DNA of 64,000 nt from Trypanosoma brucei (GCA_000002445.1 CP000069.1:1312001-1376000); one strand, 5' to 3'. Positions 1-53,931 are shown, counted from the stretch's first letter. Translations and numbers: made by a program. The notes: generated by a model from the letters alone, not told the origin.

Positions 1-1
1 C

Positions 2-30103: not shown

Positions 30104-31696
30104 ATGCCGTACCCATTGGGGTCGTCTCTTTGGGTCAAGTGCGACGACGGAGAGTGGTGGCCCGCTACCGTCCGTGAAGTGGAGACTGAGTTGCTTCTCA
30201 GCATGGGTAGTGAATACGACACCTGCATTGAATTCTATCATGACCCAGGAAACTTTTATCCACTAGACTCTACTAGCGGAGGCGTGCGACTTCTACACCT
30301 TGCAGTCGAGGAAAGAGACAAGGATGAGCAGCGCCTGTTTAATGTGAGTGCGACGAAGGAGGCCGTAAGGCGGTTACTTGAGGAACGCAGCGGCACACCC
30401 ACGGCGTCTCCCACCGAAGATTCGCAACCTTACAGTGCAGCGGAAATGCGATATATGAGGTCCCTTGTAGATTCAGTGAGCCCAGATTCTGCCGCTGTGA
30501 TGCAAAATTCGTTAAAGCAAGAGGGGGTGAATATTTCTAGAAGGAACATCCGGCGTGTGGCAAGGAAGGAACGTTCTAGCAAGTCAAAGGTTTCGCGTTC
30601 GCGCACTTCCGTGGAGGAACGGAGCACAGTACGGTTGACAAGTAGCCTGGGTTCGACACAAAGTAGTAAAAGTACCAATCCAACACCCCCATTATCTTGT
30701 GGTAGGTCTTCTTCCTCGTGGAGAAGGAGGTCTGGGGGGCGTGGTGGAGTAGAAGTGTATGGGGAGTGTGTGTTTCAGGAGGCTGTCGATGCCGCTACGT
30801 TGGATGTACTACGTGCTGAAGTCTTCGGAAATCCTGACCGGTTCGTTCTTTCACCCTTGTACCGCTTCCTTGATGTGTTAGGCGCGGTGTCAGTCGAGGG
30901 TGAAAGCATAGAAACAACACTTCCATCCCCAGCGGCAGTAAACGAAGAGCCACCTCAGGGGTTTTCCCCTTCTCGGCGTGTTCTTCTGGTTCCTCTGTCA
31001 TCGTCGTCTTACAACCACACGGATGGCTGGTTGGAGTCTTTCGAGTTTGAGAATAAGAGAATAGCCATGGAACTGTTTGTGAACGGTTTGAAGGTTGTCA
31101 CCCCTCCCAACCCGTCGGTACCCTCTGGGAGGGAAAGTGTGGCCGTAAAAACGACACCTGTTGCGGATATAACGGAAATGGTCTCGGGGAAAGAGTTGTT
31201 TTCACTGCGTGTGCACTTTACAGGACTCATGGAGGATGCGACGTTGTGGGAAGGTTATATCGTTGCTGTTTACGTGGAGCGCACCGGCGTTGATTTGCTA
31301 GCCGAGCGAATTGTCTCCAACTACCATTCGTCGCCAGCGCAACGGGAGGTTGAAGGTGTTGTTGATGTGCAGGTTAGGGCCGTCTGTCCCATAACTGCGC
31401 TGCCACTAAGTGTTCCTGTTCGTGCCTGTGGTTGTGAGCACGTTCAGTGCATTGAATTACAGGCCGTGCTGATGCACTGCGATCGTACAAATGTGTGGAA
31501 CTGCCCGCTTTGCTGGGCGCCCATGACACCAGAAACTATTGCAGTGAATTATAGGTTAAAAGAGTGGTTGGACAGTAACAGATCACGCGTAAATAAGGTA
31601 GATTTCATCGTTGAAACCCCTCCTGGTCGGAACCTGAACGTCGTTTGGAGGAAGAACGAACCGAGAAAGATTGACAACATCGAAACGCTTGAGTAG
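30104..31696 (+). CDS. Protein with a C-terminal SP-RING/MIZ zinc finger (putative SUMO E3 ligase) and an N-terminal PWWP-like motif, 530 aa
   Basis: The ORF track starts at GTG 30101. ATG 30104-30106 (MPYPLGSSLWVKCDDGEWWPATV...) was checked. The C-terminus CPITALPLSVPVRACGCEHVQCIELQAVLMHCDRTNVWNCPLCWAP matches the SP-RING pattern (CP..., R..C.H.QCF/I.L..., W.CP.C). The N-terminal LWVKCDDGEWWPATV resembles a PWWP-domain core. Confidence 0.6.
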   Translation: MPYPLGSSLWVKCDDGEWWPATVREVETELLLSMGSEYDTCIEFYHDPGNFYPLDSTSGGVRLLHLAVEERDKDEQRLFNVSATKEAVRRLLEERSGTPTASPTEDSQPYSAAEMRYMRSLVDSVSPDSAAVMQNSLKQEGVNISRRNIRRVARKERSSKSKVSRSRTSVEERSTVRLTSSLGSTQSSKSTNPTPPLSCGRSSSSWRRRSGGRGGVEVYGECVFQEAVDAATLDVLRAEVFGNPDRFVLSPLYRFLDVLGAVSVEGESIETTLPSPAAVNEEPPQGFSPSRRVLLVPLSSSSYNHTDGWLESFEFENKRIAMELFVNGLKVVTPPNPSVPSGRESVAVKTTPVADITEMVSGKELFSLRVHFTGLMEDATLWEGYIVAVYVERTGVDLLAERIVSNYHSSPAQREVEGVVDVQVRAVCPITALPLSVPVRACGCEHVQCIELQAVLMHCDRTNVWNCPLCWAPMTPETIAVNYRLKEWLDSNRSRVNKVDFIVETPPGRNLNVVWRKNEPRKIDNIETLE

Positions 31697-32593
31697 CGTG
31701 TACGCACCTTCCACATGTTCACTTTTGTATTTCGAGTGGAATAATGTCAAATAAAAACGAAACAAACTGAGGGGGGGGGGAAATAACTTGAAGCACGCAT
31801 TACGCCACGGCTTGGCGCGGCTATTCGGGTTGCCATTCACGGAATTAGTAAAATATTTAAATAATGCAGGAAAAACAAAACAAAAACACGCAGCTTCACT
31901 CTATGCATACCACAAAAGACGAACTCTTTTCTTTACTCACCGTTCTCAACTCAAAATAAAGAAAAAAAACACATGAAAAAGGCAGATATAAAAAAGGAAG
32001 CGCATGGACCCAATGGGGTCCCAACATTGGTATTAAAACCACTGTCAAACGACTATGTTGTCACCATCCGCTCCATGAAAGTAAAGCACTATTTACTTGT
32101 TCGTAAGAAAAAGTCAGTTATAAGGAAAAAACTAATCCACATGCAAATCTGTGGCGCACCGCGACATTATAACATTCGCAAAAAACACGATATGGAAAAA
32201 AACAATTAAGCAACAATATGAAACGGAGATATTATCGCAACATAACAGGAATCAAGTTTCTATCCGTCTCAAACCACTTCCACTCGCTTAAAAAAAGGTA
32301 GAAAACCAAAAAGGATATGGGTAAAGAAAAGAAATGAAATAAAATTAACACACAACAACGAAAACAAATAATAATAAATAAAATTAATGAAACAACAACA
32401 GCAAAAATGTAATGAAAAAAAAAAAATAAAAGTTTTCACCTTACTTTGCTCTTTTCCTCTCAATTCCTCTCCCTGTCGGATGTACCATTAGTTTAAAGCT
32501 ACTTCGCGTATACACCTCAGTGTACCCCTATTTCGTTTGCTCTACTCCGCAAGGTTCTACATCAATCCTACCGCCCTTGTTTCGTGAAAGGTG

Positions 32594-33787
32594 ATGTCCG
32601 TGCGCCAGATATTCTTCACGTCGGAGCATGTGAGTGAAGGTCACCCCGATAAACTATGCGATCAGGTGTCGGATGCCGTACTGGATGCATGCCTTGAGCA
32701 GGACCCGCTCTCTAAGGTTGCATGCGAGACGTGCTCAAAGACGGGGATGGTGCTTGTGTTTGGTGAGATCACAACGAAGGCTGTGATTGACTACCAGAAG
32801 GTCGTACGTGACACGGTTAAGGAGATCGGCTTCGATAACACTGAGAAGGGGTTGGACTACCGTTCACTGAACCTGCTTGTGGCCGTTGAGCAACAATCAC
32901 CCGATATTTACCAGGGCCTCGGTGACTTTGGCGGGGAGAACCTCGGTGCTGGAGACCAGGGCATGATGTTTGGTTATGCGACGAATGAGACGGAGACACT
33001 AATGCCACTCTCTTACGAACTTGCGCGCGGTCTTGCAATGACATACAGCGAGTTGCGACGCAATGGTGGTCTTCCGTGGGCGCGCCCCGACGCTAAGACG
33101 CAAGTGACAGTGCAGTACGAATATGACACCCGCGGTGGCAAGCAGTTGCTGACACCTAAGCGAGTGGCTGTGATTCTTGTTTCTGCCCAGCATGACGACG
33201 GTGTGTCAAATGAAACCATCCGCGAGGACCTGGTGAAGAAGGTAATCAGCACCACCATTCCCGCGAAGTTCCTCGATGAGAACACCAAATATCACTTGAA
33301 CCCATCTGGGCGTTTCGTCATCGGTGGCCCACATGGTGACGCTGGGTTAACTGGTCGCAAGATAATTGTTGACACGTATGGCGGTTGGGGTGCCCATGGT
33401 GGTGGCGCGTTTTCTGGCAAGGATCCCTCGAAGGTGGACCGGTCGGCAGCGTATGCTGCTCGCTGGATTGCGAAGTCTCTGGTGGCCGCAGGTCTTGCAG
33501 ATCGGTGCCTTGTACAACTTTCGTACGCCATTGGAGTTGCGGAACCGCTCAATATCCATGTCGACACATATGGCACTGGTAAGCGCGATGACGAGTATAT
33601 ATTGGGTATTGTGCAGAAAAACTTCCGACTGCGCCCGTACGACATAATCAAGGAACTTGATCTTCGTCGGCCGATATACCGCCAGACTGCCTGTTTCGGG
33701 CACTTTGGGCGTGTGGACACGAACGGGAAGGGAGGATTCACGTGGGAGGTGCCCAAAACACTAGAGGGTCTTAGTGACGTGCAGTAG
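32594..33787 (+). CDS. METK1: S-adenosylmethionine synthetase (methionine adenosyltransferase), array copy 1 of 9
   Basis: ATG 32594 (the ORF-track GTG 32591 is one codon upstream). MAT signatures are present: [76 protein letters not shown] and AYGHFGR-like CFGHFGR. It is very close to human MAT2A over its length. Confidence 0.92.
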
Positions 33788-34504
33788 TGTGTACTGCGCA
33801 CGAATAATCAGGCACACCTCCTTGCCCATCCTCACTGTTTGCGAGTAACTGCTCGCTTCCCGCCGAGTGGGTTCCTGTTGGTAACAACACCCGCCTTCGC
33901 TTATTTTTCGTTGTTACGTGATGTCATGTACTTGGCGATGTTGTGCATAAGGGAGTGGAGTAAGTAATAACAGTAGACAGGAGGTGGACGTTGCAATTAA
34001 ATTGTTTGACAAGTGTGAGGGTAGAGGGGGAAAGAATATATATATATATATATATATAACATATACCTATTTATTATTTTTAGGTATGCTATTTCGTACA
34101 CTAACGCTGTACTTTAATTCCTGGTATTTCCCACATATTGTTTCTCGGATGCGGTTTGCTCCTCATTCTTTACCTTTTTTGTTTTCTTTCGTTTTTACTC
34201 CATCATATGTTACCTTGACTGTAAACGTGTTGTTGTAAGTACTGTGACCTGTTAGCGTTACGTTTCAACTTTTTTCCCCTGCCTTACTGGGAGGTAAGTG
34301 TGATAACGACAGCAAGTGGGTACCATTATGATTGTAATTGTAAGAAATATTATTTCTGTTACATCAACCTTTGTCATTTAACTGTCACTCACGTATGGTA
34401 AGTCCTACGGTCTGTCGCCGGGGCTTTGCTTACCGTTCGTTGCTCTATCCGCTGCTGCGCACATGTAGTGAAGTACCTCGTTGTAACTGTAGTAAATAGC
34501 TAAT

Positions 34505-34604
34505 CTCCTATGTCTCCTTATTATTGTCCTTCTTTCTTCTCTTCTCTTTTGTTTTTTTTTTACCCTCAATTCCTCTCCCTGTCGGATGTACCATTAGTTT
34601 AAAG
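34505..34604 (+). promoter_or_regulatory. Polypyrimidine tract plus AG dinucleotides, a probable spliced-leader trans-splice acceptor region for the downstream METK copy. The same element recurs about 100-200 nt upstream of every array copy.
   Basis: An 85-nt run that is almost all C/T (ctcctatgtctccttattattgtccttctttcttctcttctcttttgttttttttttaccctcaattcctctccctgtcgg) is followed by AG at about 34596 and 34603, roughly 100 nt before ATG 34700. The general mechanism is established for kinetoplastids. The exact site is inferred. Confidence 0.45.
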
Positions 34605-34699
34605 CTACTTCGCGTATACACCTCAGTGTACCCCTATTTCGTTTGCTCTACTCCGCAAGGTTCTACATCAATCCTACCGCCCTTGTTTCGTGAAAGGTG

Positions 34700-35893
34700 A
34701 TGTCCGTGCGCCAGATATTCTTCACGTCGGAGCATGTGAGTGAAGGTCACCCCGATAAACTATGCGATCAGGTGTCGGATGCCGTACTGGATGCATGCCT
34801 TGAGCAGGACCCGCTCTCTAAGGTTGCATGCGAGACGTGCTCAAAGACGGGGATGGTGCTTGTGTTTGGTGAGATCACAACGAAGGCTGTGATTGACTAC
34901 CAGAAGGTCGTACGTGACACGGTTAAGGAGATCGGCTTCGATAACACTGAGAAGGGGTTGGACTACCGTTCACTGAACCTGCTTGTGGCCGTTGAGCAAC
35001 AATCACCCGATATTTACCAGGGCCTCGGTGACTTTGGCGGGGAGAACCTCGGTGCTGGAGACCAGGGCATGATGTTTGGTTATGCGACGAATGAGACGGA
35101 GACACTAATGCCACTCTCTTACGAACTTGCGCGCGGTCTTGCAATGACATACAGCGAGTTGCGACGCAATGGTGGTCTTCCGTGGGCGCGCCCCGACGCT
35201 AAGACGCAAGTGACAGTGCAGTACGAATATGACACCCGCGGTGGCAAGCAGTTGCTGACACCTAAGCGAGTGGCTGTGATTCTTGTTTCTGCCCAGCATG
35301 ACGACGGTGTGTCAAATGAAACCATCCGCGAGGACCTGGTGAAGAAGGTAATCAGCACCACCATTCCCGCGAAGTTCCTCGATGAGAACACCAAATATCA
35401 CTTGAACCCATCTGGGCGTTTTGTCATCGGTGGCCCACATGGTGACGCTGGGTTAACTGGTCGCAAGATAATTGTTGACACGTATGGCGGTTGGGGTGCC
35501 CATGGTGGTGGCGCGTTTTCTGGCAAGGATCCCTCGAAGGTGGACCGGTCGGCAGCGTATGCTGCTCGCTGGATTGCAAAGTCTCTGGTGGCCGCAGGTC
35601 TTGCAGATCGGTGCCTTGTACAACTTTCGTACGCCATTGGAGTTGCGGAACCGCTCAATATCCATGTCGACACATATGGCACTGGTAAGCGCGATGACGA
35701 GTATATATTGGGTATTGTGCAGAAAAACTTCCGACTGCGCCCGTACGACATAATCAAGGAACTTGATCTTCGTCGGCCGATATACCGCCAGACTGCCTGT
35801 TTCGGGCACTTTGGGCGTGTGGACACGAACGGGAAGGGAGGATTCACGTGGGAGGTGCCCAAAACACTAGAGGGTCTTAGTGACGTGCAGTAG
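34700..35893 (+). CDS. METK1: S-adenosylmethionine synthetase, array copy 2; carries two copy-specific synonymous changes (near 35421 and 35577)
   Basis: Identical translation to copy 1. The differences were seen by aligning the repeat units by eye. Confidence 0.92.
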
Positions 35894-36805
35894 TGTGTAC
35901 TGCGCACGAATAATCAGGCACACCTCCTTGCCCATCCTCACTGTTTGCGAGTAACTGCTCGCTTCCCGCCGAGTGGGTTCCTGTTGGTAACAACACCCGC
36001 CTTCGCTTATTTTTCGTTGTTACGTGATGTCATGTACTTGGCGATGTTGTGCATAAGGGAGTGGAGTAAGTAATAACAGTAGACAGGAGGTGGACGTTGC
36101 AATTAAATTGTTTGACAAGTGTGAGGGTAGAGGGGGAAAGAATATATATATATATATATATAACATATACCTATTTATTATTTTTAGGTATGCTATTTCG
36201 TACACTAACGCTGTACTTTAATTCCTGGTATTTCCCACATATTGTTTCTCGGATGCGGTTTGCTCCTCATTCTTTACCTTTTTTGTTTTCTTTCGTTTTT
36301 ACTCCATCATATGTTACCTTGACTGTAAACGTGTTGTTGTAAGTACTGTGACCTGTTAGCGTTACGTTTCAACTTTTTTCCCCTGCCTTACTGGGAGGTA
36401 AGTGTGATAACGACAGCAAGTGGGTACCATTATGATTGTAATTGTAAGAAATATTATTTCTGTTACATCAACCTTTGTCATTTAACTGTCACTCACGTAT
36501 GGTAAGTCCTACGGTCTGTCGCCGGGGCTTTGCTTACCGTTCGTTGCTCTATCCGCTGCTGCGCACATGTGGTGAAGTACCTCGTTGTAACTGTAGTAAA
36601 TAGCTAATCTCCTATGTCTCCTTATTATTGTCCTTCTTTCTTCTCTTCTCTTTTGTTTTTTTTTTTTACCCTCAATTCCTCTCCCTGTCGGATGTACCAT
36701 TAGTTTAAAGCTACTTCGCGTATACACCTCAGTGTACCCCTATTTCGTTTGCTCTACTCCGCAAGGTTCTACATCAATCCTACCGCCCTTGTTTCGTGAA
36801 AGGTG

Positions 36806-37999
36806 ATGTCCGTGCGCCAGATATTCTTCACGTCGGAGCATGTGAGTGAAGGTCACCCCGATAAACTATGCGATCAGGTGTCGGATGCCGTACTGGATGC
36901 ATGCCTTGAGCAGGACCCGCTCTCTAAGGTTGCATGCGAGACGTGCTCAAAGACGGGGATGGTGCTTGTGTTTGGTGAGATCACAACGAAGGCTGTGATT
37001 GACTACCAGAAGGTCGTACGTGACACGGTTAAGGAGATCGGCTTCGATAACACTGAGAAGGGGTTGGACTACCGTTCACTGAACCTGCTTGTGGCCGTTG
37101 AGCAACAATCACCCGATATTTACCAGGGCCTCGGTGACTTTGGCGGGGAGAACCTCGGTGCTGGAGACCAGGGCATGATGTTTGGTTATGCGACGAATGA
37201 GACGGAGACACTAATGCCACTCTCTTACGAACTTGCGCGCGGTCTTGCAATGACATACAGCGAGTTGCGACGCAATGGTGGTCTTCCGTGGGCGCGCCCC
37301 GACGCTAAGACGCAAGTGACAGTGCAGTACGAATATGACACCCGCGGTGGCAAGCAGTTGCTGACACCTAAGCGAGTGGCTGTGATTCTTGTTTCTGCCC
37401 AGCATGACGACGGTGTGTCAAATGAAACCATCCGCGAGGACCTGGTGAAGAAGGTAATCAGCACCACCATTCCCGCGAAGTTCCTCGATGAGAACACCAA
37501 ATATCACTTGAACCCATCTGGGCGTTTCGTCATCGGTGGCCCACATGGTGACGCTGGGTTAACTGGTCGCAAGATAATTGTCGACACGTATGGCGGTTGG
37601 GGTGCCCATGGTGGTGGCGCGTTTTCTGGCAAGGATCCCTCGAAGGTGGACCGGTCGGCAGCGTATGCTGCTCGCTGGATTGCGAAGTCTCTGGTGGCCG
37701 CAGGTCTTGCAGATCGGTGCCTTGTACAACTTTCGTACGCCATTGGAGTTGCGGAACCGCTCAATATCCATGTCGACACATATGGCACTGGTAAGCGCGA
37801 TGACGAGTATATATTGGGTATTGTGCAGAAAAACTTCCGACTGCGCCCGTACGACATAATCAAGGAACTTGATCTTCGTCGGCCGATATACCGCCAGACT
37901 GCCTGTTTCGGGCACTTTGGGCGTGTGGACACGAACGGGAAGGGAGGATTCACGTGGGAGGTGCCCAAAACACTAGAGGGTCTTAGTGACGTGCAGTAG
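36806..37999 (+). CDS. METK1: S-adenosylmethionine synthetase, array copy 3; has a synonymous GTT>GTC change (attgtcgacacg) shared with copy 5
   Basis: Identical translation to copy 1. Confidence 0.92.
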
Positions 38000-38909
38000 T
38001 GTGTACTGCGCACGAATAATCAGGCACACCTCCTTGCCCATCCTCACTGTTTGCGAGTAACTGCTCGCTTCCCGCCGAGTGGGTTCCTGTTGGTAACAAC
38101 ACCCGCCTTCGCTTATTTTTCGTTGTTACGTGATGTCATGTACTTGGCGATGTTGTGCATAAGGGAGTGGAGTAAGTAATAACAGTAGACAGGAGGTGGA
38201 CGTTGCAATTAAATTGTTTGACAAGTGTGAGGGTAGAGGGGGAAAGAATATATATATATATATATAACATATACCTATTTATTATTTTTAGGTATGCTAT
38301 TTCGTACACTAACGCTGTACTTTAATTCCTGGTATTTCCCACATATTGTTTCTCGGATGCGGTTTGCTCCTCATTCTTTACCTTTTTTGTTTTCTTTCGT
38401 TTTTACTCCATCATATGTTACCTTGACTGTAAACGTGTTGTTGTAAGTACTGTGACCTGTTAGCGTTACGTTTCAACTTTTTTCCCCTGCCTTACTGGGA
38501 GGTAAGTGTGATAACGACAGCAAGTGGGTACCATTATGATTGTAATTGTAAGAAATATTATTTCTGTTACATCAACCTTTGTCATTTAACTGTCACTCAC
38601 GTATGGTAAGTCCTACGGTCTGTCGCCGGGGCTTTGCTTACCGTTCGTTGCTCTATCCGCTGCTGCGCACATGTAGTGAAGTACCTCGTTGTAACTGTAG
38701 TAAATAGCTAATCTCCTATGTCTCCTTATTATTGTCCTTCTTTCTTCTCTTCTCTTTTGTTTTTTTTTTTTACCCTCAATTCCTCTCCCTGTCGGATGTA
38801 CCATTAGTTTAAAGCTACTTCGCGTATACACCTCAGTGTACCCCTATTTCGTTTGCTCTACTCCGCAAGGTTCTACATCAATCCTACCGCCCTTGTTTCG
38901 TGAAAGGTG

Positions 38910-40103
38910 ATGTCCGTGCGCCAGATATTCTTCACGTCGGAGCATGTGAGTGAAGGTCACCCCGATAAACTATGCGATCAGGTGTCGGATGCCGTACTGG
39001 ATGCATGCCTTGAGCAGGACCCGCTCTCTAAGGTTGCATGCGAGACGTGCTCAAAGACGGGGATGGTGCTTGTGTTTGGTGAGATCACAACGAAGGCTGT
39101 GATTGACTACCAGAAGGTCGTACGTGACACGGTTAAGGAGATCGGCTTCGATAACACTGAGAAGGGGTTGGACTACCGTTCACTGAACCTGCTTGTGGCC
39201 GTTGAGCAACAATCACCCGATATTTACCAGGGCCTCGGTGACTTTGGCGGGGAGAACCTCGGTGCTGGAGACCAGGGCATGATGTTTGGTTATGCGACGA
39301 ATGAGACGGAGACACTAATGCCACTCTCTTACGAACTTGCGCGCGGTCTTGCAATGACATACAGCGAGTTGCGACGCAATGGTGGTCTTCCGTGGGCGCG
39401 CCCCGACGCTAAGACGCAAGTGACAGTGCAGTACGAATATGACACCCGCGGTGGCAAGCAGTTGCTGACACCTAAGCGAGTGGCTGTGATTCTTGTTTCT
39501 GCCCAGCTTGACGACGGTGTGTCAAATGAAACCATCCGCGAGGACCTGGTGAAGAAGGTAATCAGCACCACCATTCCCGCGAAGTTCCTCGATGAGAACA
39601 CCAAATATCACTTGAACCCATCTGGGCGTTTCGTCATCGGTGGCCCACATGGTGACGCTGGGTTAACTGGTCGCAAGATAATTGTTGACACGTATGGCGG
39701 TTGGGGTGCCCATGGTGGTGGCGCGTTTTCTGGCAAGGATCCCTCGAAGGTGGACCGGTCGGCAGCGTATGCTGCTCGCTGGATTGCGAAGTCTCTGGTG
39801 GCCGCAGGTCTTGCAGATCGGTGCCTTGTACAACTTTCGTACGCCATTGGAGTTGCGGAACCGCTCAATATCCATGTCGACACATATGGCACTGGTAAGC
39901 GCGATGACGAGTATATATTGGGTATTGTGCAGAAAAACTTCCGACTGCGCCCGTACGACATAATCAAGGAACTTGATCTTCGTCGGCCGATATACCGCCA
40001 GACTGCCTGTTTCGGGCACTTTGGGCGTGTGGACACGAACGGGAAGGGAGGATTCACGTGGGAGGTGCCCAAAACACTAGAGGGTCTTAGTGACGTGCAG
40101 TAG
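38910..40103 (+). CDS. METK1: S-adenosylmethionine synthetase, array copy 4; non-synonymous His>Leu in the conserved SAQ-H-DDGV motif (CAT>CTT at 39508)
   Basis: The translation reads SAQLDDGV instead of SAQHDDGV. The nucleotide context gcccagcttgacgac contrasts with gcccagcatgacgac in the other eight copies. Confidence 0.9.
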
Positions 40104-41015
40104 TGTGTACTGCGCACGAATAATCAGGCACACCTCCTTGCCCATCCTCACTGTTTGCGAGTAACTGCTCGCTTCCCGCCGAGTGGGTTCCTGTTGGTAA
40201 CAACACCCGCCTTCGCTTATTTTTCGTTGTTACGTGATGTCATGTACTTGGCGATGTTGTGCATAAGGGAGTGGAGTAAGTAATAACAGTAGACAGGAGG
40301 TGGACGTTGCAATTAAATTGTTTGACAAGTGTGAGGGTAGAGGGGGAAAGAATATATATATATATATATATAACATATACCTATTTATTATTTTTAGGTA
40401 TGCTATTTCGTACACTAACGCTGTACTTTAATTCCTGGTATTTCCCACATATTGTTTCTCGGATGCGGTTTGCTCCTCATTCTTTACCTTTTTTGTTTTC
40501 TTTCGTTTTTACTCCATCATATGTTACCTTGACTGTAAACGTGTTGTTGTAAGTACTGTGACCTGTTAGCGTTACGTTTCAACTTTTTTCCCCTGCCTTA
40601 CTGGGAGGTAAGTGTGATAACGACAGCAAGTGGGTACCATTATGATTGTAATTGTAAGAAATATTATTTCTGTTACATCAACCTTTGTCATTTAACTGTC
40701 ACTCACGTATGGTAAGTCCTACGGTCTGTCGCCGGGGCTTTGCTTACCGTTCGTTGCTCTATCCGCTGCTGCGCACATGTGGTGAAGTACCTCGTTGTAA
40801 CTGTAGTAAATAGCTAATCTCCTATGTCTCCTTATTATTGTCCTTCTTTCTTCTCTTCTCTTTTGTTTTTTTTTTTTACCCTCAATTCCTCTCCCTGTCG
40901 GATGTACCATTAGTTTAAAGCTACTTCGCGTATACACCTCAGTGTACCCCTATTTCGTTTGCTCTACTCCGCAAGGTTCTACATCAATCCTACCGCCCTT
41001 GTTTCGTGAAAGGTG

Positions 41016-42209
41016 ATGTCCGTGCGCCAGATATTCTTCACGTCGGAGCATGTGAGTGAAGGTCACCCCGATAAACTATGCGATCAGGTGTCGGATGCCG
41101 TACTGGATGCATGCCTTGAGCAGGACCCGCTCTCTAAGGTTGCATGCGAGACGTGCTCAAAGACGGGGATGGTGCTTGTGTTTGGTGAGATCACAACGAA
41201 GGCTGTGATTGACTACCAGAAGGTCGTACGTGACACGGTTAAGGAGATCGGCTTCGATAACACTGAGAAGGGGTTGGACTACCGTTCACTGAACCTGCTT
41301 GTGGCCGTTGAGCAGCAATCACCCGATATTTACCAGGGCCTCGGTGACTTTGGCGGGGAGAACCTCGGTGCTGGAGACCAGGGCATGATGTTTGGTTATG
41401 CGACGAATGAGACGGAGACACTAATGCCACTCTCTTACGAACTTGCGCGCGGTCTTGCAATGACATACAGCGAGTTGCGACGCAATGGTGGTCTTCCGTG
41501 GGCGCGCCCCGACGCTAAGACGCAAGTGACAGTGCAGTACGAATATGACACCCGCGGTGGCAAGCAGTTGCTGACACCTAAGCGAGTGGCTGTGATTCTT
41601 GTTTCTGCCCAGCATGACGACGGTGTGTCAAATGAAACCATCCGCGAGGACCTGGTGAAGAAGGTAATCAGCACCACCATTCCCGCGAAGTTCCTCGATG
41701 AGAACACCAAATATCACTTGAACCCATCTGGGCGTTTCGTCATCGGTGGCCCACATGGTGACGCTGGGTTAACTGGTCGCAAGATAATTGTCGACACGTA
41801 TGGCGGTTGGGGTGCCCATGGTGGTGGCGCGTTTTCTGGCAAGGATCCCTCGAAGGTGGACCGGTCGGCAGCGTATGCTGCTCGCTGGATTGCGAAGTCT
41901 CTGGTGGCCGCAGGTCTTGCAGATCGGTGCCTTGTACAACTTTCGTACGCCATTGGAGTTGCGGAACCGCTCAATATCCATGTCGACACATATGGCACTG
42001 GTAAGCGCGATGACGAGTATATATTGGGTATTGTGCAGAAAAACTTCCGACTGCGCCCGTACGACATAATCAAGGAACTTGATCTTCGTCGGCCGATATA
42101 CCGCCAGACTGCCTGTTTCGGGCACTTTGGGCGTGTGGACACGAACGGGAAGGGAGGATTCACGTGGGAGGTGCCCAAAACACTAGAGGGTCTTAGTGAC
42201 GTGCAGTAG
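41016..42209 (+). CDS. METK1: S-adenosylmethionine synthetase, array copy 5; synonymous CAA>CAG near 41313 and the GTT>GTC change shared with copy 3
   Basis: Identical translation to copy 1. Confidence 0.92.
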
Positions 42210-43121
42210 TGTGTACTGCGCACGAATAATCAGGCACACCTCCTTGCCCATCCTCACTGTTTGCGAGTAACTGCTCGCTTCCCGCCGAGTGGGTTCCTGT
42301 TGGTAACAACACCCGCCTTCGCTTATTTTTCGTTGTTACGTGATGTCATGTACTTGGCGATGTTGTGCATAAGGGAGTGGAGTAAGTAATAACAGTAGAC
42401 AGGAGGTGGACGTTGCAATTAAATTGTTTGACAAGTGTGAGGGTAGAGGGGGAAAGAATATATATATATATATATATAACATATACCTATTTATTATTTT
42501 TAGGTATGCTATTTCGTACACTAACGCTGTACTTTAATTCCTGGTATTTCCCACATATTGTTTCTCGGATGCGGTTTGCTCCTCATTCTTTACCTTTTTT
42601 GTTTTCTTTCGTTTTTACTCCATCATATGTTACCTTGACTGTAAACGTGTTGTTGTAAGTACTGTGACCTGTTAGCGTTACGTTTCAACTTTTTTCCCCT
42701 GCCTTACTGGGAGGTAAGTGTGATAACGACAGCAAGTGGGTACCATTATGATTGTAATTGTAAGAAATATTATTTCTGTTACATCAACCTTTGTCATTTA
42801 ACTGTCACTCACGTATGGTAAGTCCTACGGTCTGTCGCCGGGGCTTTGCTTACCGTTCGTTGCTCTATCCGCTGCTGCGCACATGTAGTGAAGTACCTCG
42901 TTGTAACTGTAGTAAATAGCTAATCTCCTATGTCTCCTTATTATTGTCCTTCTTTCTTCTCTTCTCTTTTGTTTTTTTTTTTTACCCTCAATTCCTCTCC
43001 CTGTCGGATGTACCATTAGTTTAAAGCTACTTCGCGTATACACCTCAGTGTACCCCTATTTCGTTTGCTCTACTCCGCAAGGTTCTACATCAATCCTACC
43101 GCCCTTGTTTCGTGAAAGGTG

Positions 43122-44315
43122 ATGTCCGTGCGCCAGATATTCTTCACGTCGGAGCATGTGAGTGAAGGTCACCCCGATAAACTATGCGATCAGGTGTCGG
43201 ATGCCGTACTGGATGCATGCCTTGAGCAGGACCCGCTCTCTAAGGTTGCATGCGAGACGTGCTCAAAGACGGGGATGGTGCTTGTGTTTGGTGAGATCAC
43301 AACGAAGGCTGTGATTGACTACCAGAAGGTCGTACGTGACACGGTTAAGGAGATCGGCTTCGATAACACTGAGAAGGGGTTGGACTACCGTTCACTGAAC
43401 CTGCTTGTGGCCGTTGAGCAACAATCACCCGATATTTACCAGGGCCTCGGTGACTTTGGCGGGGAGAACCTCGGTGCTGGAGACCAGGGCATGATGTTTG
43501 GTTATGCGACGAATGAGACGGAGACACTAATGCCACTCTCTTACGAACTTGCGCGCGGTCTTGCAATGACATACAGCGAGTTGCGACGCAATGGTGGTCT
43601 TCCGTGGGCGCGCCCCGACGCTAAGACGCAAGTGACAGTGCAGTACGAATATGACACCCGCGGTGGCAAGCAGTTGCTGACACCTAAGCGAGTGGCTGTG
43701 ATTCTTGTTTCTGCCCAGCATGACGACGGTGTGTCAAATGGAACCATCCGCGAGGACCTGGTGAAGAAGGTAATCAGCACCACCATTCCCGCGAAGTTCC
43801 TCGATGAGAACACCAAATATCACTTGAACCCATCTGGGCGTTTCGTCATCGGTGGCCCACATGGTGACGCTGGGTTAACTGGTCGCAAGATAATTGTTGA
43901 CACGTATGGCGGTTGGGGTGCCCATGGTGGTGGCGCGTTTTCTGGCAAGGATCCCTCGAAGGTGGACCGGTCGGCAGCGTATGCTGCTCGCTGGATTGCG
44001 AAGTCTCTGGTGGCCGCAGGTCTTGCAGATCGGTGCCTTGTACAACTTTCGTACGCCATTGGAGTTGCGGAACCGCTCAATATCCATGTCGACACATATG
44101 GCACTGGTAAGCGCGATGACGAGTATATATTGGGTATTGTGCAGAAAAACTTCCGACTGCGCCCGTACGACATAATCAAGGAACTTGATCTTCGTCGGCC
44201 GATATACCGCCAGACTGCCTGTTTCGGGCACTTTGGGCGTGTGGACACGAACGGGAAGGGAGGATTCACGTGGGAGGTGCCCAAAACACTAGAGGGTCTT
44301 AGTGACGTGCAGTAG
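43122..44315 (+). CDS. METK1: S-adenosylmethionine synthetase, array copy 6; non-synonymous Glu>Gly (GAA>GGA at 43741, SNETIRED>SNGTIRED)
   Basis: Translation difference seen in the ORF track, and the nucleotide difference (tcaaatggaacc versus tcaaatgaaacc) seen in the sequence. Confidence 0.9.
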
Positions 44316-45226
44316 TGTGTACTGCGCACGAATAATCAGGCACACCTCCTTGCCCATCCTCACTGTTTGCGAGTAACTGCTCGCTTCCCGCCGAGTGGGT
44401 TCCTGTTGGTAACAACACCCGCCTTCGCTTATTTTTCGTTGTTACGTGATGTCATGTACTTGGCGATGTTGTGCATAAGGGAGTGGAGTAAGTAATAACA
44501 GTAGACAGGAGGTGGACGTTGCAATTAAATTGTTTGACAAGTGTGAGGGTAGAGGGGGAAAGAATATATATATATATATATATAACATATACCTATTTAT
44601 TATTTTTAGGTATGCTATTTCGTACACTAACGCTGTACTTTAATTCCTGGTATTTCCCACATATTGTTTCTCGGATGCGGTTTGCTCCTCATTCTTTACC
44701 TTTTTTGTTTTCTTTCGTTTTTACTCCATCATATGTTACCTTGACTGTAAACGTGTTGTTGTAAGTACTGTGACCTGTTAGCGTTACGTTTCAACTTTTT
44801 TCCCCTGCCTTACTGGGAGGTAAGTGTGATAACGACAGCAAGTGGGTACCATTATGATTGTAATTGTAAGAAATATTATTTCTGTTACATCAACCTTTGT
44901 CATTTAACTGTCACTCACGTATGGTAAGTCCTACGGTCTGTCGCCGGGGCTTTGCTTACCGTTCGTTGCTCTATCCGCTGCTGCGCACATGTGGTGAAGT
45001 ACCTCGTTGTAACTGTAGTAAATAGCTAATCTCCTATGTCTCCTTATTATTGTCCTTCTTTCTTCTCTTCTCTTTTGTTTTTTTTTTTACCCTCAATTCC
45101 TCTCCCTGTCGGATGTACCATTAGTTTAAAGCTACTTCGCGTATACACCTCAGTGTACCCCTATTTCGTTTGCTCTACTCCGCAAGGTTCTACATCAATC
45201 CTACCGCCCTTGTTTCGTGAAAGGTG

Positions 45227-46420
45227 ATGTCCGTGCGCCAGATATTCTTCACGTCGGAGCATGTGAGTGAAGGTCACCCCGATAAACTATGCGATCAGGT
45301 GTCGGATGCCGTACTGGATGCATGCCTTGAGCAGGACCCGCTCTCTAAGGTTGCATGCGAGACGTGCTCAAAGACGGGGATGGTGCTTGTGTTTGGTGAG
45401 ATCACAACGAAGGCTGTGATTGACTACCAGAAGGTCGTACGTGACACGGTTAAGGAGATCGGCTTCGATAACACTGAGAAGGGGTTGGACTACCGTTCAC
45501 TGAACCTGCTTGTGGCCGTTGAGCAACAATCACCCGATATTTACCAGGGCCTCGGTGACTTTGGCGGGGAGAACCTCGGTGCTGGAGACCAGGGCATGAT
45601 GTTTGGTTATGCGACGAATGAGACGGAGACACTAATGCCACTCTCTTACGAACTTGCGCGCGGTCTTGCAATGACATACAGCGAGTTGCGACGCAATGGT
45701 GGTCTTCCGTGGGCGCGCCCCGACGCTAAGACGCAAGTGACAGTGCAGTACGAATATGACACCCGCGGTGGCAAGCAGTTGCTGACACCTAAGCGAGTGG
45801 CTGTGATTCTTGTTTCTGCCCAGCATGACGACGGTGTGTCAAATGAAACCATCCGCGAGGACCTGGTGAAGAAGGTAATCAGCACCACCATTCCCGCGAA
45901 GTTCCTCGATGAGAACACCAAATATCACTTGAACCCATCTGGGCGTTTCGTCATCGGTGGCCCACATGGTGACGCTGGGTTAACTGGTCGCAAGATAATT
46001 GTTGACACGTATGGCGGTTGGGGTGCCCATGGTGGTGGCGCGTTTTCTGGCAAGGATCCCTCGAAGGTGGACCGGTCGGCAGCGTATGCTGCTCGCTGGA
46101 TTGCGAAGTCTCTGGTGGCCGCAGGTCTTGCAGATCGGTGCCTTGTACAACTTTCGTACGCCATTGGAGTTGCGGAACCGCTCAATATCCATGTCGACAC
46201 ATATGGCACTGGTAAGCGCGATGACGAGTATATATTGGGTATTGTGCAGAAAAACTTCCGACTGCGCCCGTACGACATAATCAAGGAACTTGATCTTCGT
46301 CGGCCGATATACCGCCAGACTGCCTGTTTCGGGCACTTTGGGCGTGTGGACACGAACGGGAAGGGAGGATTCACGTGGGAGGTGCCCAAAACACTAGAGG
46401 GTCTTAGTGACGTGCAGTAG
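45227..46420 (+). CDS. METK1: S-adenosylmethionine synthetase, array copy 7
   Basis: Identical translation to copy 1. Confidence 0.92.
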
Positions 46421-47330
46421 TGTGTACTGCGCACGAATAATCAGGCACACCTCCTTGCCCATCCTCACTGTTTGCGAGTAACTGCTCGCTTCCCGCCGAG
46501 TGGGTTCCTGTTGGTAACAACACCCGCCTTCGCTTATTTTTCGTTGTTACGTGATGTCATGTACTTGGCGATGTTGTGCATAAGGGAGTGGAGTAAGTAA
46601 TAACAGTAGACAGGAGGTGGACGTTGCAATTAAATTGTTTGACAAGTGTGAGGGTAGAGGGGGAAAGAATATATATATATATATATAACATATACCTATT
46701 TATTATTTTTAGGTATGCTATTTCGTACACTAACGCTGTACTTTAATTCCTGGTATTTCCCACATATTGTTTCTCGGATGCGGTTTGCTCCTCATTCTTT
46801 ACCTTTTTTGTTTTCTTTCGTTTTTACTCCATCATATGTTACCTTGACTGTAAACGTGTTGTTGTAAGTACTGTGACCTGTTAGCGTTACGTTTCAACTT
46901 TTTTCCCCTGCCTTACTGGGAGGTAAGTGTGATAACGACAGCAAGTGGGTACCATTATGATTGTAATTGTAAGAAATATTATTTCTGTTACATCAACCTT
47001 TGTCATTTAACTGTCACTCACGTATGGTAAGTCCTACGGTCTGTCGCCGGGGCTTTGCTTACCGTTCGTTGCTCTATCCGCTGCTGCGCACATGTGGTGA
47101 AGTACCTCGTTGTAACTGTAGTAAATAGCTAATCTCCTATGTCTCCTTATTATTGTCCTTCTTTCTTCTCTTCTCTTTTGTTTTTTTTTTTTACCCTCAA
47201 TTCCTCTCCCTGTCGGATGTACCATTAGTTTAAAGCTACTTCGCGTATACACCTCAGTGTACCCCTATTTCGTTTGCTCTACTCCGCAAGGTTCTACATC
47301 AATCCTACCGCCCTTGTTTCGTGAAAGGTG

Positions 47331-48524
47331 ATGTCCGTGCGCCAGATATTCTTCACGTCGGAGCATGTGAGTGAAGGTCACCCCGATAAACTATGCGATC
47401 AGGTGTCGGATGCCGTACTGGATGCATGCCTTGAGCAGGACCCGCTCTCTAAGGTTGCATGCGAGACGTGCTCAAAGACGGGGATGGTGCTTGTGTTTGG
47501 TGAGATCACAACGAAGGCTGTGATTGACTACCAGAAGGTCGTACGTGACACGGTTAAGGAGATCGGCTTCGATAACACTGAGAAGGGGTTGGACTACCGT
47601 TCACTGAACCTGCTTGTGGCCGTTGAGCAACAATCACCCGATATTTACCAGGGCCTCGGTGACTTTGGCGGGGAGAACCTCGGTGCTGGAGACCAGGGCA
47701 TGATGTTTGGTTATGCGACGAATGAGACGGAGACACTAATGCCACTCTCTTACGAACTTGCGCGCGGTCTTGCAATGACATACAGCGAGTTGCGACGCAA
47801 TGGTGGTCTTCCGTGGGCGCGCCCCGACGCTAAGACGCAAGTGACAGTGCAGTACGAATATGACACCCGCGGTGGCAAGCAGTTGCTGACACCTAAGCGA
47901 GTGGCTGTGATTCTTGTTTCTGCCCAGCATGACGACGGTGTGTCAAATGAAACCATCCGCGAGGACCTGGTGAAGAAGGTAATCAGCACCACCATTCCCG
48001 CGAAGTTCCTCGATGAGAACACCAAATATCACTTGAACCCATCTGGGCGTTTCGTCATCGGTGGCCCACATGGTGACGCTGGGTTAACTGGTCGCAAGAT
48101 AATTGTTGACACGTATGGCGGTTGGGGTGCCCATGGTGGTGGCGCGTTTTCTGGCAAGGATCCCTCGAAGGTGGACCGGTCGGCAGCGTATGCTGCTCGC
48201 TGGATTGCGAAGTCTCTGGTGGCCGCAGGTCTTGCAGATCGGTGCCTTGTACAACTTTCGTACGCCATTGGAGTTGCGGAACCGCTCAATATCCATGTCG
48301 ACACATATGGCACTGGTAAGCGCGATGACGAGTATATATTGGGTATTGTGCAGAAAAACTTCCGACTGCGCCCGTACGACATAATCAAGGAACTTGATCT
48401 TCGTCGGCCGATATACCGCCAGACTGCCTGTTTCGGGCACTTTGGGCGTGTGGACACGAACGGGAAGGGAGGATTCACGTGGGAGGTGCCCAAAACACTA
48501 GAGGGTCTTAGTGACGTGCAGTAG
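47331..48524 (+). CDS. METK1: S-adenosylmethionine synthetase, array copy 8
   Basis: Identical translation to copy 1. Confidence 0.92.
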
Positions 48525-49434
48525 TGTGTACTGCGCACGAATAATCAGGCACACCTCCTTGCCCATCCTCACTGTTTGCGAGTAACTGCTCGCTTCCCGC
48601 CGAGTGGGTTCCTGTTGGTAACAACACCCGCCTTCGCTTATTTTTCGTTGTTACGTGATGTCATGTACTTGGCGATGTTGTGCATAAGGGAGTGGAGTAA
48701 GTAATAACAGTAGACAGGAGGTGGACGTTGCAATTAAATTGTTTGACAAGTGTGAGGGTAGAGGGGGAAAGAATATATATATATATATATAACATATACC
48801 TATTTATTATTTTTAGGTATGCTATTTCGTACACTAACGCTGTACTTTAATTCCTGGTATTTCCCACATATTGTTTCTCGGATGCGGTTTGCTCCTCATT
48901 CTTTACCTTTTTTGTTTTCTTTCGTTTTTACTCCATCATATGTTACCTTGACTGTAAACGTGTTGTTGTAAGTACTGTGACCTGTTAGCGTTACGTTTCA
49001 ACTTTTTTCCCCTGCCTTACTGGGAGGTAAGTGTGATAACGACAGCAAGTGGGTACCATTATGATTGTAATTGTAAGAAATATTATTTCTGTTACATCAA
49101 CCTTTGTCATTTAACTGTCACTCACGTATGGTAAGTCCTACGGTCTGTCGCCGGGGCTTTGCTTACCGTTCGTTGCTCTATCCGCTGCTGCGCACATGTA
49201 GTGAAGTACCTCGTTGTAACTGTAGTAAATAGCTAATCTCCTATGTCTCCTTATTATTGTCCTTCTTTCTTCTCATCTCTTTTGTTTTTTTTTTTTACCC
49301 TCAATTCCTCTCCCTGTCGGATGTACCATTAGTTTAAAGCTACTTCGCGTATACACCTCAGTGTACCCCTATTTCGTTTGCTCTACTCCGCAAGGTTCTA
49401 CATCAATCCTACCGCCCTTGTTTCGTGAAAGGTG

Positions 49435-50628
49435 ATGTCCGTGCGCCAGATATTCTTCACGTCGGAGCATGTGAGTGAAGGTCACCCCGATAAACTATGC
49501 GATCAGGTGTCGGATGCCGTACTGGATGCATGCCTTGAGCAGGACCCGCTCTCTAAGGTTGCATGCGAGACGTGCTCAAAGACGGGGATGGTGCTTGTGT
49601 TTGGTGAGATCACAACGAAGGCTGTGATTGACTACCAGAAGGTCGTACGTGACACGGTTAAGGAGATCGGCTTCGATAACACTGAGAAGGGGTTGGACTA
49701 CCGTTCACTGAACCTGCTTGTGGCCGTTGAGCAACAATCACCCGATATTTACCAGGGCCTCGGTGACTTTGGCGGGGAGAACCTCGGTGCTGGAGACCAG
49801 GGCATGATGTTTGGTTATGCGACGAATGAGACGGAGACACTAATGCCACTCTCTTACGAACTTGCGCGCGGTCTTGCAATGACATACAGCGAGTTGCGAC
49901 GCAATGGTGGTCTTCCGTGGGCGCGCCCCGACGCTAAGACGCAAGTGACAGTGCAGTACGAATATGACACCCGCGGTGGCAAGCAGTTGCTGACACCTAA
50001 GCGAGTGGCTGTGATTCTTGTTTCTGCCCAGCATGACGACGGTGTGTCAAATGAAACCATCCGCGAGGACCTGGTGAAGAAGGTAATCAGCACCACCATT
50101 CCCGCGAAGTTCCTCGATGAGAACACCAAATATCACTTGAACCCATCTGGGCGTTTCGTCATCGGTGGCCCACATGGTGACGCTGGGTTAACTGGTCGCA
50201 AGATAATTGTTGACACGTATGGCGGTTGGGGTGCCCATGGTGGTGGCGCGTTTTCTGGCAAGGATCCCTCGAAGGTGGACCGGTCGGCAGCGTATGCTGC
50301 TCGCTGGATTGCGAAGTCTCTGGTGGCCGCAGGTCTTGCAGATCGGTGCCTTGTACAACTTTCGTACGCCATTGGAGTTGCGGAACCGCTCAATATCCAT
50401 GTCGACACATATGGCACTGGTAAGCGCGATGACGAGTATATATTGGGTATTGTGCAGAAAAACTTCCGACTGCGCCCGTACGACATAATCAAGGAACTTG
50501 ATCTTCGTCGGCCGATATACCGCCAGACTGCCTGTTTCGGGCACTTTGGGCGTGTGGACACGAACGGGAAGGGAGGATTCACGTGGGAGGTGCCCAAAAC
50601 ACTAGAGGGTCTTAGTGACGTGCAGTAG
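49435..50628 (+). CDS. METK1: S-adenosylmethionine synthetase, array copy 9 (last); downstream sequence diverges from the repeat after ~50727
   Basis: Identical translation to copy 1. The 3' flank shares about 100 bp with the other units and then becomes unique AT-rich sequence with (TA)n tracts. Confidence 0.92.
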
Positions 50629-50920
50629 TGTGTACTGCGCACGAATAATCAGGCACACCTCCTTGCCCATCCTCACTGTTTGCGAGTAACTGCTCGCTTC
50701 CCGCCGAGTGGGTTCCTGTTGGTAACAACTTTATTTGTTATATAGGAGAGGGCATTGTTTTTTAAATTAATATTTTTTTTGTTAATATATATATATATAT
50801 ATATATATATTTTAAATTTTTTGTCTCTATGTTTTTTTTTCTGCTGTTATAATATATATATATATATATATGTATAATTTTTTTCTTTAAAAATTTTAGG
50901 GTTTTCGTTCTGCTGTTTTT

Positions 50921-51664
50921 ATGCTGGTTTCGTACTTGCGTCTGCAGGCAGACAGGCGCACAAGGCATCATATGATGGTTGATGGGCAAATAAATCCTCG
51001 CGAGTGGTTTAATTGGCATCCGAAAGAGTATCAGCCATGGTACTTTGATCGGCACAAATTTCTTTATGAGCAGCGGCAGTATGCACAGTTTCATCATTTA
51101 CTGTGTCACCAGGTGTATTTGAAAGATATGCTTCATCTCATGCGTTACCCAGAGCCTTATACTCATATTATCGACTGTCGTACGTCTACGCAAAAGATGC
51201 ATCGATGGGTTCCTCACAGTCTATGGTTACCTCGCGATGAGGTTGAATATGCTTTGCAGTTGAGTGCTGATGAATTTCTTGATATGTATGGGTTCAGGAA
51301 ACCAGACAAGTCAGATGATGTTATACTTTTGTCTCATAATGGAATTTACTCGGAGCAAGCCGGGTGGGAGTGGAAAAAGCAGTTTTTCCAACATGTGTAT
51401 AACTATCGTGGGGGGACTAACGAGTTGTTTGGTGAGTCTTATAGTGATATGAACGTTAGTGACGTGTTGTCTCCGTGGAAGGGCCCTTTTCCTCAGAGTG
51501 GAGTGTTTGTTGACAAGTGGAGCAAGAGGAAAGTGTTGACACGGACGGGACCGTTTGATCGTCAGTACGAGATGCAGGACTTTGCGTTGCCGGACCTTGA
51601 ACTGGAGAAGGCAAGGCATCCTGAAGAAGGTCCGCGGCAGAACATGCCTTTCGGTCTTCAGTGA
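50921..51664 (+). CDS. Rhodanese-like domain protein, 247 aa, predicted catalytically inactive (Ser in place of the active-site Cys)
   Basis: Real ATG at 50921. The rhodanese fold pattern is present (THIIDCRTSTQKMHRWVPHSLWLP ... DDVILLSHNGIYSEQAGWEWKK ... VYNYRGGTNELFG). The position normally occupied by the catalytic Cys in the CxxGxR loop reads LLSHNG. Confidence 0.5.
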   Translation: MLVSYLRLQADRRTRHHMMVDGQINPREWFNWHPKEYQPWYFDRHKFLYEQRQYAQFHHLLCHQVYLKDMLHLMRYPEPYTHIIDCRTSTQKMHRWVPHSLWLPRDEVEYALQLSADEFLDMYGFRKPDKSDDVILLSHNGIYSEQAGWEWKKQFFQHVYNYRGGTNELFGESYSDMNVSDVLSPWKGPFPQSGVFVDKWSKRKVLTRTGPFDRQYEMQDFALPDLELEKARHPEEGPRQNMPFGLQ

Positions 51665-53182: not shown

Positions 53183-53427
53183 CCACACGGCTTGCAGTTG
53201 TGGTGGTTGTTTTCTTATCAATTGTCGTGAGTTTCTTGAGTGCGTTTCCCCTCTCCCTCTCCCTCTCCCTTTTCTTCTCTCTGTCTGCTTCGAGCCTGCT
53301 ACCGCTCTCCGTCCTATCCTCTCCAAAGCATATGCTTCCTTGCTCGATTTTGATGGTCTAGCAATTCTGTGGTTTTGAAGAACCAGGTTGTATATTTTTT
53401 TGCCCTTTTCTTACCATCAAGACGGTG

Positions 53428-53931
53428 ATGCAAGCGGAAGAGACCACAGCCGTAGAGGTTCTTCAAGACGCCCCAGTACAAGAGACCATGCAGTCTTGTC
53501 TTCACTATGTCCGATACTTTGCTGGCCACACGGGTCGTTATGGAAACGAGTTTCTGGAGTTTGACATACGAGATGACGGCACGTTGAAGTATGGAAATAA
53601 CAGCCGTTACCGAAACGAGAATATCATCAAGAAGCAAGCGCGTATCTCACCTGCCGTTTTGGAGGAGATCAAACGTCTCATTATCCTCTCTGGAATTCTA
53701 GAACGCGACGATGAATGTTGGCCACAACCGGACCGGAACGGGCGACAAGAGCTCGAGATACACCTTGGAGACACCCACATTTCATTTGTAACCAACAAAA
53801 TAACTTCTTTAAGTGAAGTTGAGAGCCCTGACAAACCCAAGGGACTGGACACCTTCTACTATTTTGTGCGAGATATTAAAGCACTGGTACTTGCGCTTGT
53901 TTCGCTGCATTTTAAAATCAAGGCGTGGTAG
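53428..53931 (+). CDS. MAGO: Mago nashi homologue (exon-junction complex core subunit). It is 167 aa from the first ATG, but the conserved Mago core begins at the internal ATG 53488 (147 aa).
   Basis: The translation aligns along its whole length with animal Mago/MAGOH. Compare [55 protein letters not shown]...[32 protein letters not shown]...[29 protein letters not shown] with human [43 protein letters not shown]...[32 protein letters not shown]...[29 protein letters not shown]. Confidence 0.85.

Follow-up and report, generated by a model that had tools for sequence, protein, structure and literature searches.

A head-to-tail tandem array of nine S-adenosylmethionine (AdoMet) synthetase genes (METK) occupies 18,271 bp of the + strand of the 64,000-nucleotide stretch of Trypanosoma brucei DNA analysed here (the window). 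The region is very probably the METK (TbAdoMetSyn) array Tb927.6.4840-Tb927.6.4920, in which amplification raises gene dosage and the copies are transcribed by read-through and kept uniform by concerted evolution. The array is already known, having been annotated and described in at least two papers.

Base-by-base extension of the exact repeat placed the array at window positions 32459-50729, equivalent to 8.68 units, with a content of nine METK coding sequences (CDSs) and eight full spacers of ~911 nt. The initial annotation of this DNA had proposed a nine-copy array at 32458-50727, and its bounds were right to within 1-2 nt. The list of open reading frames (ORFs) contained nine + strand ORFs of 398 codons within 32591-50628, each of which opens with GTG-ATG and gives a 397-aa protein from the ATG. 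The METK ATGs, which are the first coordinates of the CDSs listed below, are spaced 2104-2106 bp apart, this being the period of the unit. The period of the array exceeds the maximum of Tandem Repeats Finder (500 bp), and the array was not reported by that program; unit analysis was scripted instead. Repetition of such length and identity cannot arise by chance. The elements of the array, in window coordinates, are as follows.

32459..50729, + strand: whole tandem array of ~2105-bp units, corresponding to Tb927.6.4840-Tb927.6.4920
32594..33787, + strand: METK copy 1 CDS, 397 aa plus stop; CDS identical to those of copies 7, 8 and 9
34700..35893, + strand: METK copy 2 CDS, with two private synonymous single-nucleotide polymorphisms (SNPs), C723T and G879A
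36806..37999, + strand: METK copy 3 CDS, with synonymous T777C, common to copy 5
38910..40103, + strand: METK copy 4 CDS, with A599T (window 39508) giving H200L; corresponds to AAZ12045/Q586F9
41016..42209, + strand: METK copy 5 CDS (Tb927.6.4880), with synonymous A300G and T777C; its stop agrees with a published poly(A) coordinate
43122..44315, + strand: METK copy 6 CDS, with A620G (window 43741) giving E207G; corresponds to AAZ12047/Q586G1
45227..46420, + strand: METK copy 7 CDS, from the ORF list
47331..48524, + strand: METK copy 8 CDS, from the ORF list
49435..50628, + strand: METK copy 9 CDS (Tb927.6.4920), the terminal copy, which has only the first 101 nt of its 3' sequence in common with the other copies
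33788..34699, + strand: representative spacer, 912 nt, occurring eight times, with the 3' untranslated region (3'UTR), poly(A) region, polypyrimidine tract, predicted splice acceptor and 5'UTR of the next copy
34036..34058, + strand: (AT)n microsatellite in the 3'UTR part of the spacer, its length varying among units

At the left edge of the array, the repeat extends upstream of the first ATG for 135 nt of perfect identity, or for 142 nt if 2 mismatches are allowed. At the right edge it continues for 1295 nt counted from the last ATG and so ends 101 nt beyond the stop, as determined by extension and by blastn of the spacer against the flanks. The GC content of the representative spacer is 41%, compared with 54% for the CDS. 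No other repeat was found in the window at E<=1e-10, and no direct or inverted repeats flank the array.

The METK protein matched exactly AAZ12042 and its neighbours, which are annotated as 'S-adenosylmethionine synthetase, putative' in T. b. brucei TREU927. Seven proteins encoded in the flanking parts of the window were also exact matches to TREU927 entries (AAZ12032, AAZ12033, AAZ12040, AAZ12051, AAZ12054, AAZ12055 and AAZ12059), and the exactly matched proteins of the window include an importin-alpha re-exporter, CPC1, a rhodanese-domain protein, a zinc-finger protein and SRPK. A single offset of 1,312,000 fitted three published chromosome 6 features, namely the CDS of Tb927.6.4830 (1,342,104-1,343,696, window 30104-31696) and the stops of Tb927.6.4880 and Tb927.6.4920. 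These stops were derived as poly(A) position minus 3'UTR length and fell at window 42209 and 50628, the ends of copies 5 and 9; the window corresponds to Tb927_06_v4:1,312,001-1,376,000. The genes Tb927.6.4840-Tb927.6.4920 have been described as a '9-copy tandem array' (Patel et al. 2018, PLoS Pathog 14:e1007404). The exact protein matches, the coordinate fit and these gene identifiers bear out the earlier statement that a METK array is annotated in T. brucei.

Three Pfam domains, each near full length, were found in the METK protein: PF00438 (E 3.9e-41), PF02772 (1.7e-41) and PF02773 (2.2e-66), which are the N, M and C domains of S-AdoMet_synt. Residues 6-390 aligned to rat MAT1A (1o90) and human MAT2A (2p02) with E ~1e-159, and the corresponding value for E. 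coli MetK was ~1e-135. The methionine adenosyltransferase (MAT) family is marked by the PROSITE signatures GAGDQG-x3-GY and GGGAFSGKD and by an N-terminal GHPDK, and MAT signature motifs, including GGGAFSGKD, are present in the translation. The three domains and the homology to the rat and human enzymes thus support the initial assignment of the array gene as an S-adenosylmethionine synthetase gene. Recombinant TbAdoMetSyn is active, with a kcat of 0.19-0.24 per s, a Km for Met of 31-45 uM and a Km for ATP of 0.31-0.35 mM, and RNA interference (RNAi) against it leads to growth arrest and to an 80-90% decrease in AdoMet and decarboxylated AdoMet (Patel et al. 2018, PLoS Pathog 14:e1007404). Rat MAT1A and human MAT2A resemble METK in full-length homology, three-domain architecture and signature motifs. 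By contrast, mammals have two or three diverged paralogues that are separately regulated, together with a regulatory beta subunit, whereas T. brucei has many identical copies of one gene.

An antisense ORF of 169 aa (33292-33801, - strand), with an equivalent in every unit, overlaps the 3' part of the METK CDS. It was rejected as a gene: Pfam gave no match, its strand is the one not transcribed in the polycistron, and it is most likely a spurious by-product of the GC-rich coding strand.

Whole-unit pairwise identity, with indel columns counted, was 99.67-99.91% (mean 99.77%). The initial figure of ~99.9% between units, spacers included, was slightly high but correct in substance. The entire variation consists of six CDS SNP sites, two spacer SNP sites, the length of (AT)n and the length of a poly-T tract. 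Private SNPs distinguish units 2, 3, 4, 5, 6 and 8, and distinct (AT)n or poly-T lengths distinguish units 1 and 6. CDS pi was 0.0013, and two of the six variable CDS sites are non-synonymous (H200L, E207G). The histidine altered in copy 4 is invariant in 116/116 sequences of the homologue alignment, and the position altered in copy 6 is E or D in 112 of these 116 homologues. H200L and E207G may be base-call errors, or they may mark mildly defective copies that are tolerated through redundancy. The active sites of MAT enzymes are situated at the dimer interface, and subunits with a defect could therefore lower the activity of mixed oligomers.

One of the two spacer SNPs (window 34467, unit position 1874) reads A,G,A,G,A,G,G,A over units 1-8, a near-perfect two-unit alternation, and is A in all copies of the other strains described below. 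The alternation could reflect expansion by two-unit blocks, or haplotypes interleaved in the assembly.

Units from TREU927 were aligned with those of T. b. gambiense DAL972 (L002/L003), of an assembly labelled 'T. brucei equiperdum' (L001, GCA_003543875.1) and of a short-read contig (L004). CDS position 600 is T in 9/9 TREU927 copies and C in all others, and CDS position 656 is G in all TREU927 copies and A in all others, which gives S219 and N219, respectively. Unit positions 1956 and 1958, in the spacer, are both C in 4/4 gambiense spacers and are gambiense-specific; likewise, spacer position 1405 is C in 3/3 L001 spacers and is L001-specific. Synonymous and non-coding substitutions that are fixed by strain in this way imply homogenisation since these close relatives diverged, and concerted evolution of the copies, in the form of strain-specific homogenisation, is supported. 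We infer that in-register unequal crossing-over and/or gene conversion, acting recurrently, would keep the copies and their spacers near-identical.

If the copies were instead old duplicates kept alike through purifying selection on the protein, without homogenising recombination, similarity of the coding sequences would be unsurprising, since MAT is highly conserved (68-90% identity among the non-brucei homologues listed). The non-coding spacers, however, are as alike as the CDSs. Unit identity was 98-100% within T. congolense and within T. vivax, and CDS identity to T. brucei was only 77-79%, yet no similarity was detectable among the spacers of T. brucei, T. congolense and T. vivax. Moreover, selection on the protein cannot yield synonymous and spacer substitutions that are fixed per strain. 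Old selected duplicates were rejected on this spacer and strain-fixation evidence as exceedingly improbable. The same evidence upholds the initial proposal of ongoing concerted evolution as opposed to old duplicates held by selection.

Near-identity alone does not separate young copies from homogenised ones, and spacers that are unalignable between species would also fit independent amplifications. Both features would therefore be expected if each lineage had undergone a single recent burst of amplification, with no continuing homogenisation and with copies that are merely young. However, METK is a single syntenic copy, flanked by the zf-MIZ and rhodanese genes, in T. grayi and T. melophagium, whereas all three salivarian lineages examined (T. 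brucei, T. congolense and T. vivax) have arrays. One origin with subsequent turnover is therefore a more parsimonious account than at least three independent bursts. In addition, for close T. brucei subspecies to carry private substitutions in all copies would require repeated contraction and re-expansion, or conversion, which is concerted evolution. Lineage-specific bursts were thus judged improbable. Large METK amplification was found in 3/3 salivarian lineages sampled and in none outside them among the species examined; Novymonas esmeraldas has two METK copies, and L. infantum has two METK genes (LinJ.30.3560/LinJ.30.3580). The increase from one or two to eight or more copies may be tied to a clade-specific rise in demand for AdoMet, and a tentative reading is that METK amplification is a shared derived salivarian trait.

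In Leishmania, resistance to sinefungin, methotrexate, antimony or allopurinol goes together with changes in METK dosage, and the array could in principle be a stress- or drug-selected amplicon of the Leishmania type that arose in a laboratory line. The array is, however, chromosomal, lies within a conserved gene order and occurs in independent isolates of several subspecies and of several species, and the window lacks the flanking direct or inverted repeats of such amplicons. An amplicon of this origin was rejected on these grounds, its likelihood being close to nil. The METK genes of the other trypanosomatids are orthologous to that of T. brucei and, wherever flanks were available, lie downstream of the zf-MIZ gene and upstream of the rhodanese gene, but the loci differ in copy number and in spacer sequence.

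The number of units varied widely among assemblies. In DAL972 the array is interrupted by two unsized gaps of 100 N, and its count is at least 6; 4 copies were counted for L001 and 1 annotated copy for T. equiperdum OVI, and the short-read contig L004 (Logan ERR034315) is a single unit of 2139 bp. The published T. equiperdum IVM-t1 assembly was made from 7,508 PacBio reads and MiSeq data, with chromosomes built on TREU927, although L001 is not confirmed as that assembly. In T. congolense IL3000, a collapsed contig of 3471 bp comprises a complete unit and two incomplete ones, the period being 2118 bp. In T. vivax, the array extends throughout positions 1-14355 of a contig (L006, GCA_021307395.1 SOPI01000006.1) that has no flanks and is made up of seven complete units and two incomplete ones, the period being ~1775 bp; these units are 98.4-99.5% alike, and their frames are broken by indels typical of uncorrected long reads. 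The T. vivax array of at least 8 units is a small update, as the table of Jackson 2007 (BMC Evol Biol 7:54, PMC1855330) did not score this species.

The assemblies with low counts are gapped, of low coverage or built from short reads, and the locus collapses in assemblies of these kinds. The counts of 9, at least 6, 4 and 1 were accordingly rejected as evidence of real copy-number differences between strains, which the initial annotation had considered likely. The collapse in short-read assemblies that the initial annotation had expected was thus seen, for example in the single-unit L004 contig and in the 3471-bp T. congolense contig. An assembly artefact in TREU927 itself, with fewer or more real units than nine because near-identical repeats were mis-assembled or two haplotypes were merged, has some points in its favour: repeats that are 99.8% identical with a 2.1-kb period are hard to assemble, the other Trypanozoon assemblies give 4, 6 with gaps, one and a single-unit contig, and none of the six private TREU927 CDS SNPs recurs in the other strains compared, so that some of them may be base-call errors. 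Most units are, however, individually marked, unlike the product of a copy-and-paste error; the lower counts stem from gapped or low-coverage assemblies; the T. vivax long-read contig shows that arrays of such size exist in the clade; and the high mRNA level of the family fits many copies. An artefact of this sort is therefore considered unlikely, at about the same low level as lineage-specific bursts.

All ORFs of >=200 aa in the window are on the + strand. The genes Tb927.6.4590-Tb927.6.5200 form one + strand RNA polymerase II (Pol II) transcription unit (Kolev et al. 2010, PMC2936537, Table S14), and the entire window falls within it. Rfam (gathering thresholds) and tRNA scans of the entire window gave 0 matches, and no embedded snoRNA or tRNA accounts for the spacers. 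In every spacer, a polypyrimidine tract and a following AG lie 96-173 nt upstream of the METK ATG, and poly(A) sites have been mapped for two copies. The elements involved are as follows.

34527..34580, + strand: polypyrimidine tract with three pyrimidine runs, the expected trans-splicing signal for the next copy by the rules of Kolev 2010
34596-7 and 34603-4, + strand: first two AGs after the polypyrimidine tract, the predicted splice acceptors, 97-104 nt before the next ATG
42799 (chr6 1,354,799), + strand: major poly(A) site of the internal copy Tb927.6.4880, with a 3'UTR of ~590-616 nt (Kolev 2010, Table S13)
50783 (chr6 1,362,783), + strand: major poly(A) site of the terminal copy Tb927.6.4920, with a 3'UTR of ~153-155 nt (Kolev 2010, Table S13)

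The predicted acceptors would imply a genomic 5'UTR of ~96-103 nt. The left boundary of the array falls at the equivalent polypyrimidine point upstream of copy 1 (32449-32474). About 220 nt separate the poly(A) site at 42799 from the predicted acceptor that follows it downstream and serves the next copy, consistent with the known coupling of splicing and polyadenylation (Kolev 2010). In the mechanism proposed, Pol II would transcribe the whole series of nine copies without a break, within a single polycistron, and the polypyrimidine tract and AG of each spacer would guide spliced-leader trans-splicing for the copy that follows and, coupled to it, polyadenylation of the one before. One passage of the polymerase would then give nine mature mRNAs for one enzyme.

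The METK family mRNA total is 97.5 per procyclic cell, a level that ranks among ribosomal-protein genes, whereas the genome median is 3, with 75% of genes at 1-10 (Kolev 2010, PMC2936537). This is equivalent to ~10.8 mRNAs per annotated METK copy (97.5/9), and dosage would give roughly a nine-fold factor on top of the per-copy level. Trypanosomes have no gene-specific Pol II promoters, and for this reason copy number would set the basal output of METK. A slow enzyme (kcat ~0.2 per s) would require much protein to supply AdoMet, which would be needed for methylation and, via decarboxylated AdoMet, for the synthesis of spermidine and trypanothione; the slow turnover is plausibly a reason for the high METK output. 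The initial interpretation of the amplification as a dosage device, which is also the published view (Jackson 2007), fits the mRNA counts, and dosage would appear to be the selected trait.

Several observations weigh against a nine-copy, dosage-raising array that is kept uniform by concerted evolution. First, the count of nine in TREU927 is that of one assembly, and other assemblies give 4, at least 6 (gapped) and 1. Second, six SNPs are private, and two of these alter conserved residues, so that either homogenisation has not gone to completion or there are base errors in the reference. Third, neither flank of the array has sequence resembling the ~670-nt spacer interior, and the unit is therefore not accounted for by a simple duplication, in one step, of the flanks now present. 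Nor did comparison of this interior with the METK loci of T. congolense, T. vivax and T. melophagium, with the intergenic flanks of T. grayi and with the gene upstream of METK in T. grayi and T. melophagium reveal any similarity. Finally, per-copy mRNA is already ~3.6x the median, which means that dosage is not the sole contributor and that mRNA stability must help.

The 3'UTR of the terminal copy diverges from those of the other copies after its first 101 nt, its last ~54 nt being unique (50629-50783 compared with 33788-34400). Given the differing 3'UTR lengths, the array would yield two classes of mRNA (8 + 1). That these are two regulatory classes, and that the nine copies are accordingly not equivalent, is a possibility that we put forward tentatively and regard as rather doubtful. 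In such a case, the terminal copy could escape control acting on the long 3'UTR, for example by life-cycle stage or by the supply of methionine or AdoMet. Differences in the UTRs of terminal copies are known in other T. brucei arrays, and a separately regulated terminal copy of METK would for that reason be a modest finding.

AT-rich low-complexity tracts adjoin both edges of the array, an A-rich repeat with a 25-nt period upstream (32376-32431) and (AT)13 downstream (50785-50810). A similar (AT)n run occurs in the internal spacers. The tracts may be remnants of the original unequal exchange or may have served as its substrates, but sequences of this kind are frequent in trypanosome UTRs.

The array was listed as 'Tb47', S-adenosylmethionine synthetase, an 'invariant' array, in a survey of T. 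brucei tandem arrays (Jackson 2007, BMC Evol Biol 7:54, PMC1855330). In that survey, gene order at Tb47 was conserved in T. brucei, T. b. gambiense and T. congolense, the T. brucei copies were monophyletic with 500/500 bootstrap support, the non-coding portions were usually identical, and the terminal UTRs matched the internal spacers but were curtailed. The curtailed terminal UTRs are the stubs of 135 nt and 101 nt measured here at the ends of the array. The survey gave Ds = Dn = 0.0000 for Tb47, with 'very occasional silent changes', whereas six variable CDS sites, two of them non-synonymous, are present in the window. Similarly, the '18 identical copies' of Patel et al. 2018 contrast with H200L and E207G in public entries. 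The array is not mentioned in a 2026 T. brucei pangenome preprint or in a 2026 T. congolense long-read assembly paper.

Other invariant T. brucei arrays (alpha/beta-tubulin, histones H2A/H2B/H3/H4, PFR1/2, cysteine peptidase and glycerol kinase) are also head-to-tail within a Pol II unit, and share with the METK array near-identical CDSs and spacers, high summed mRNA and homogenisation within species. Most of them encode structural or very abundant proteins, whereas METK is a metabolic enzyme. According to the table of Jackson 2007, only African trypanosomes have the METK array; those of tubulin and histones have a wider distribution.

The array carries little weight as a discovery, but is a clean worked example of gene dosage replacing promoter control and of concerted evolution. 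It also provides a practical warning: short-read and low-coverage assemblies collapse the METK locus, and multi-mapping reads mask per-copy expression. AdoMet synthesis feeds the polyamine/trypanothione pathway, a validated drug-target pathway in sleeping sickness, and dosage at the METK locus consequently bears on drug response. The presence of 18 METK copies per diploid cell makes knockouts impractical, which accounts for the use of RNAi by Patel et al. 2018.

The immediate neighbours of the array are as follows.

30104..31696, + strand: Tb927.6.4830, zf-MIZ (SP-RING) protein, upstream neighbour; its mapped transcript end is at 32439, 20 nt before the array
50921..51664, + strand: rhodanese-domain protein AAZ12051, downstream neighbour, which adjoins METK in every trypanosomatid locus examined

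Three genes that are syntenic in T. grayi and T. melophagium, encoding a protein kinase of 387-389 aa, a 271-288-aa protein and a cytochrome P450, had no homologues in the T. brucei window by tblastn. Window positions 27691-28915, 31697-32458 and 53183-54031 were compared with T. grayi positions 4619-5788, 8986-9801 and 13965-15491 (L008) and with T. melophagium (L007). The 271-288-aa gene sits directly upstream of METK in T. grayi and T. melophagium. The kinase and P450 genes are also present at the Novymonas locus and thus look ancestral, having been lost or moved in T. brucei.

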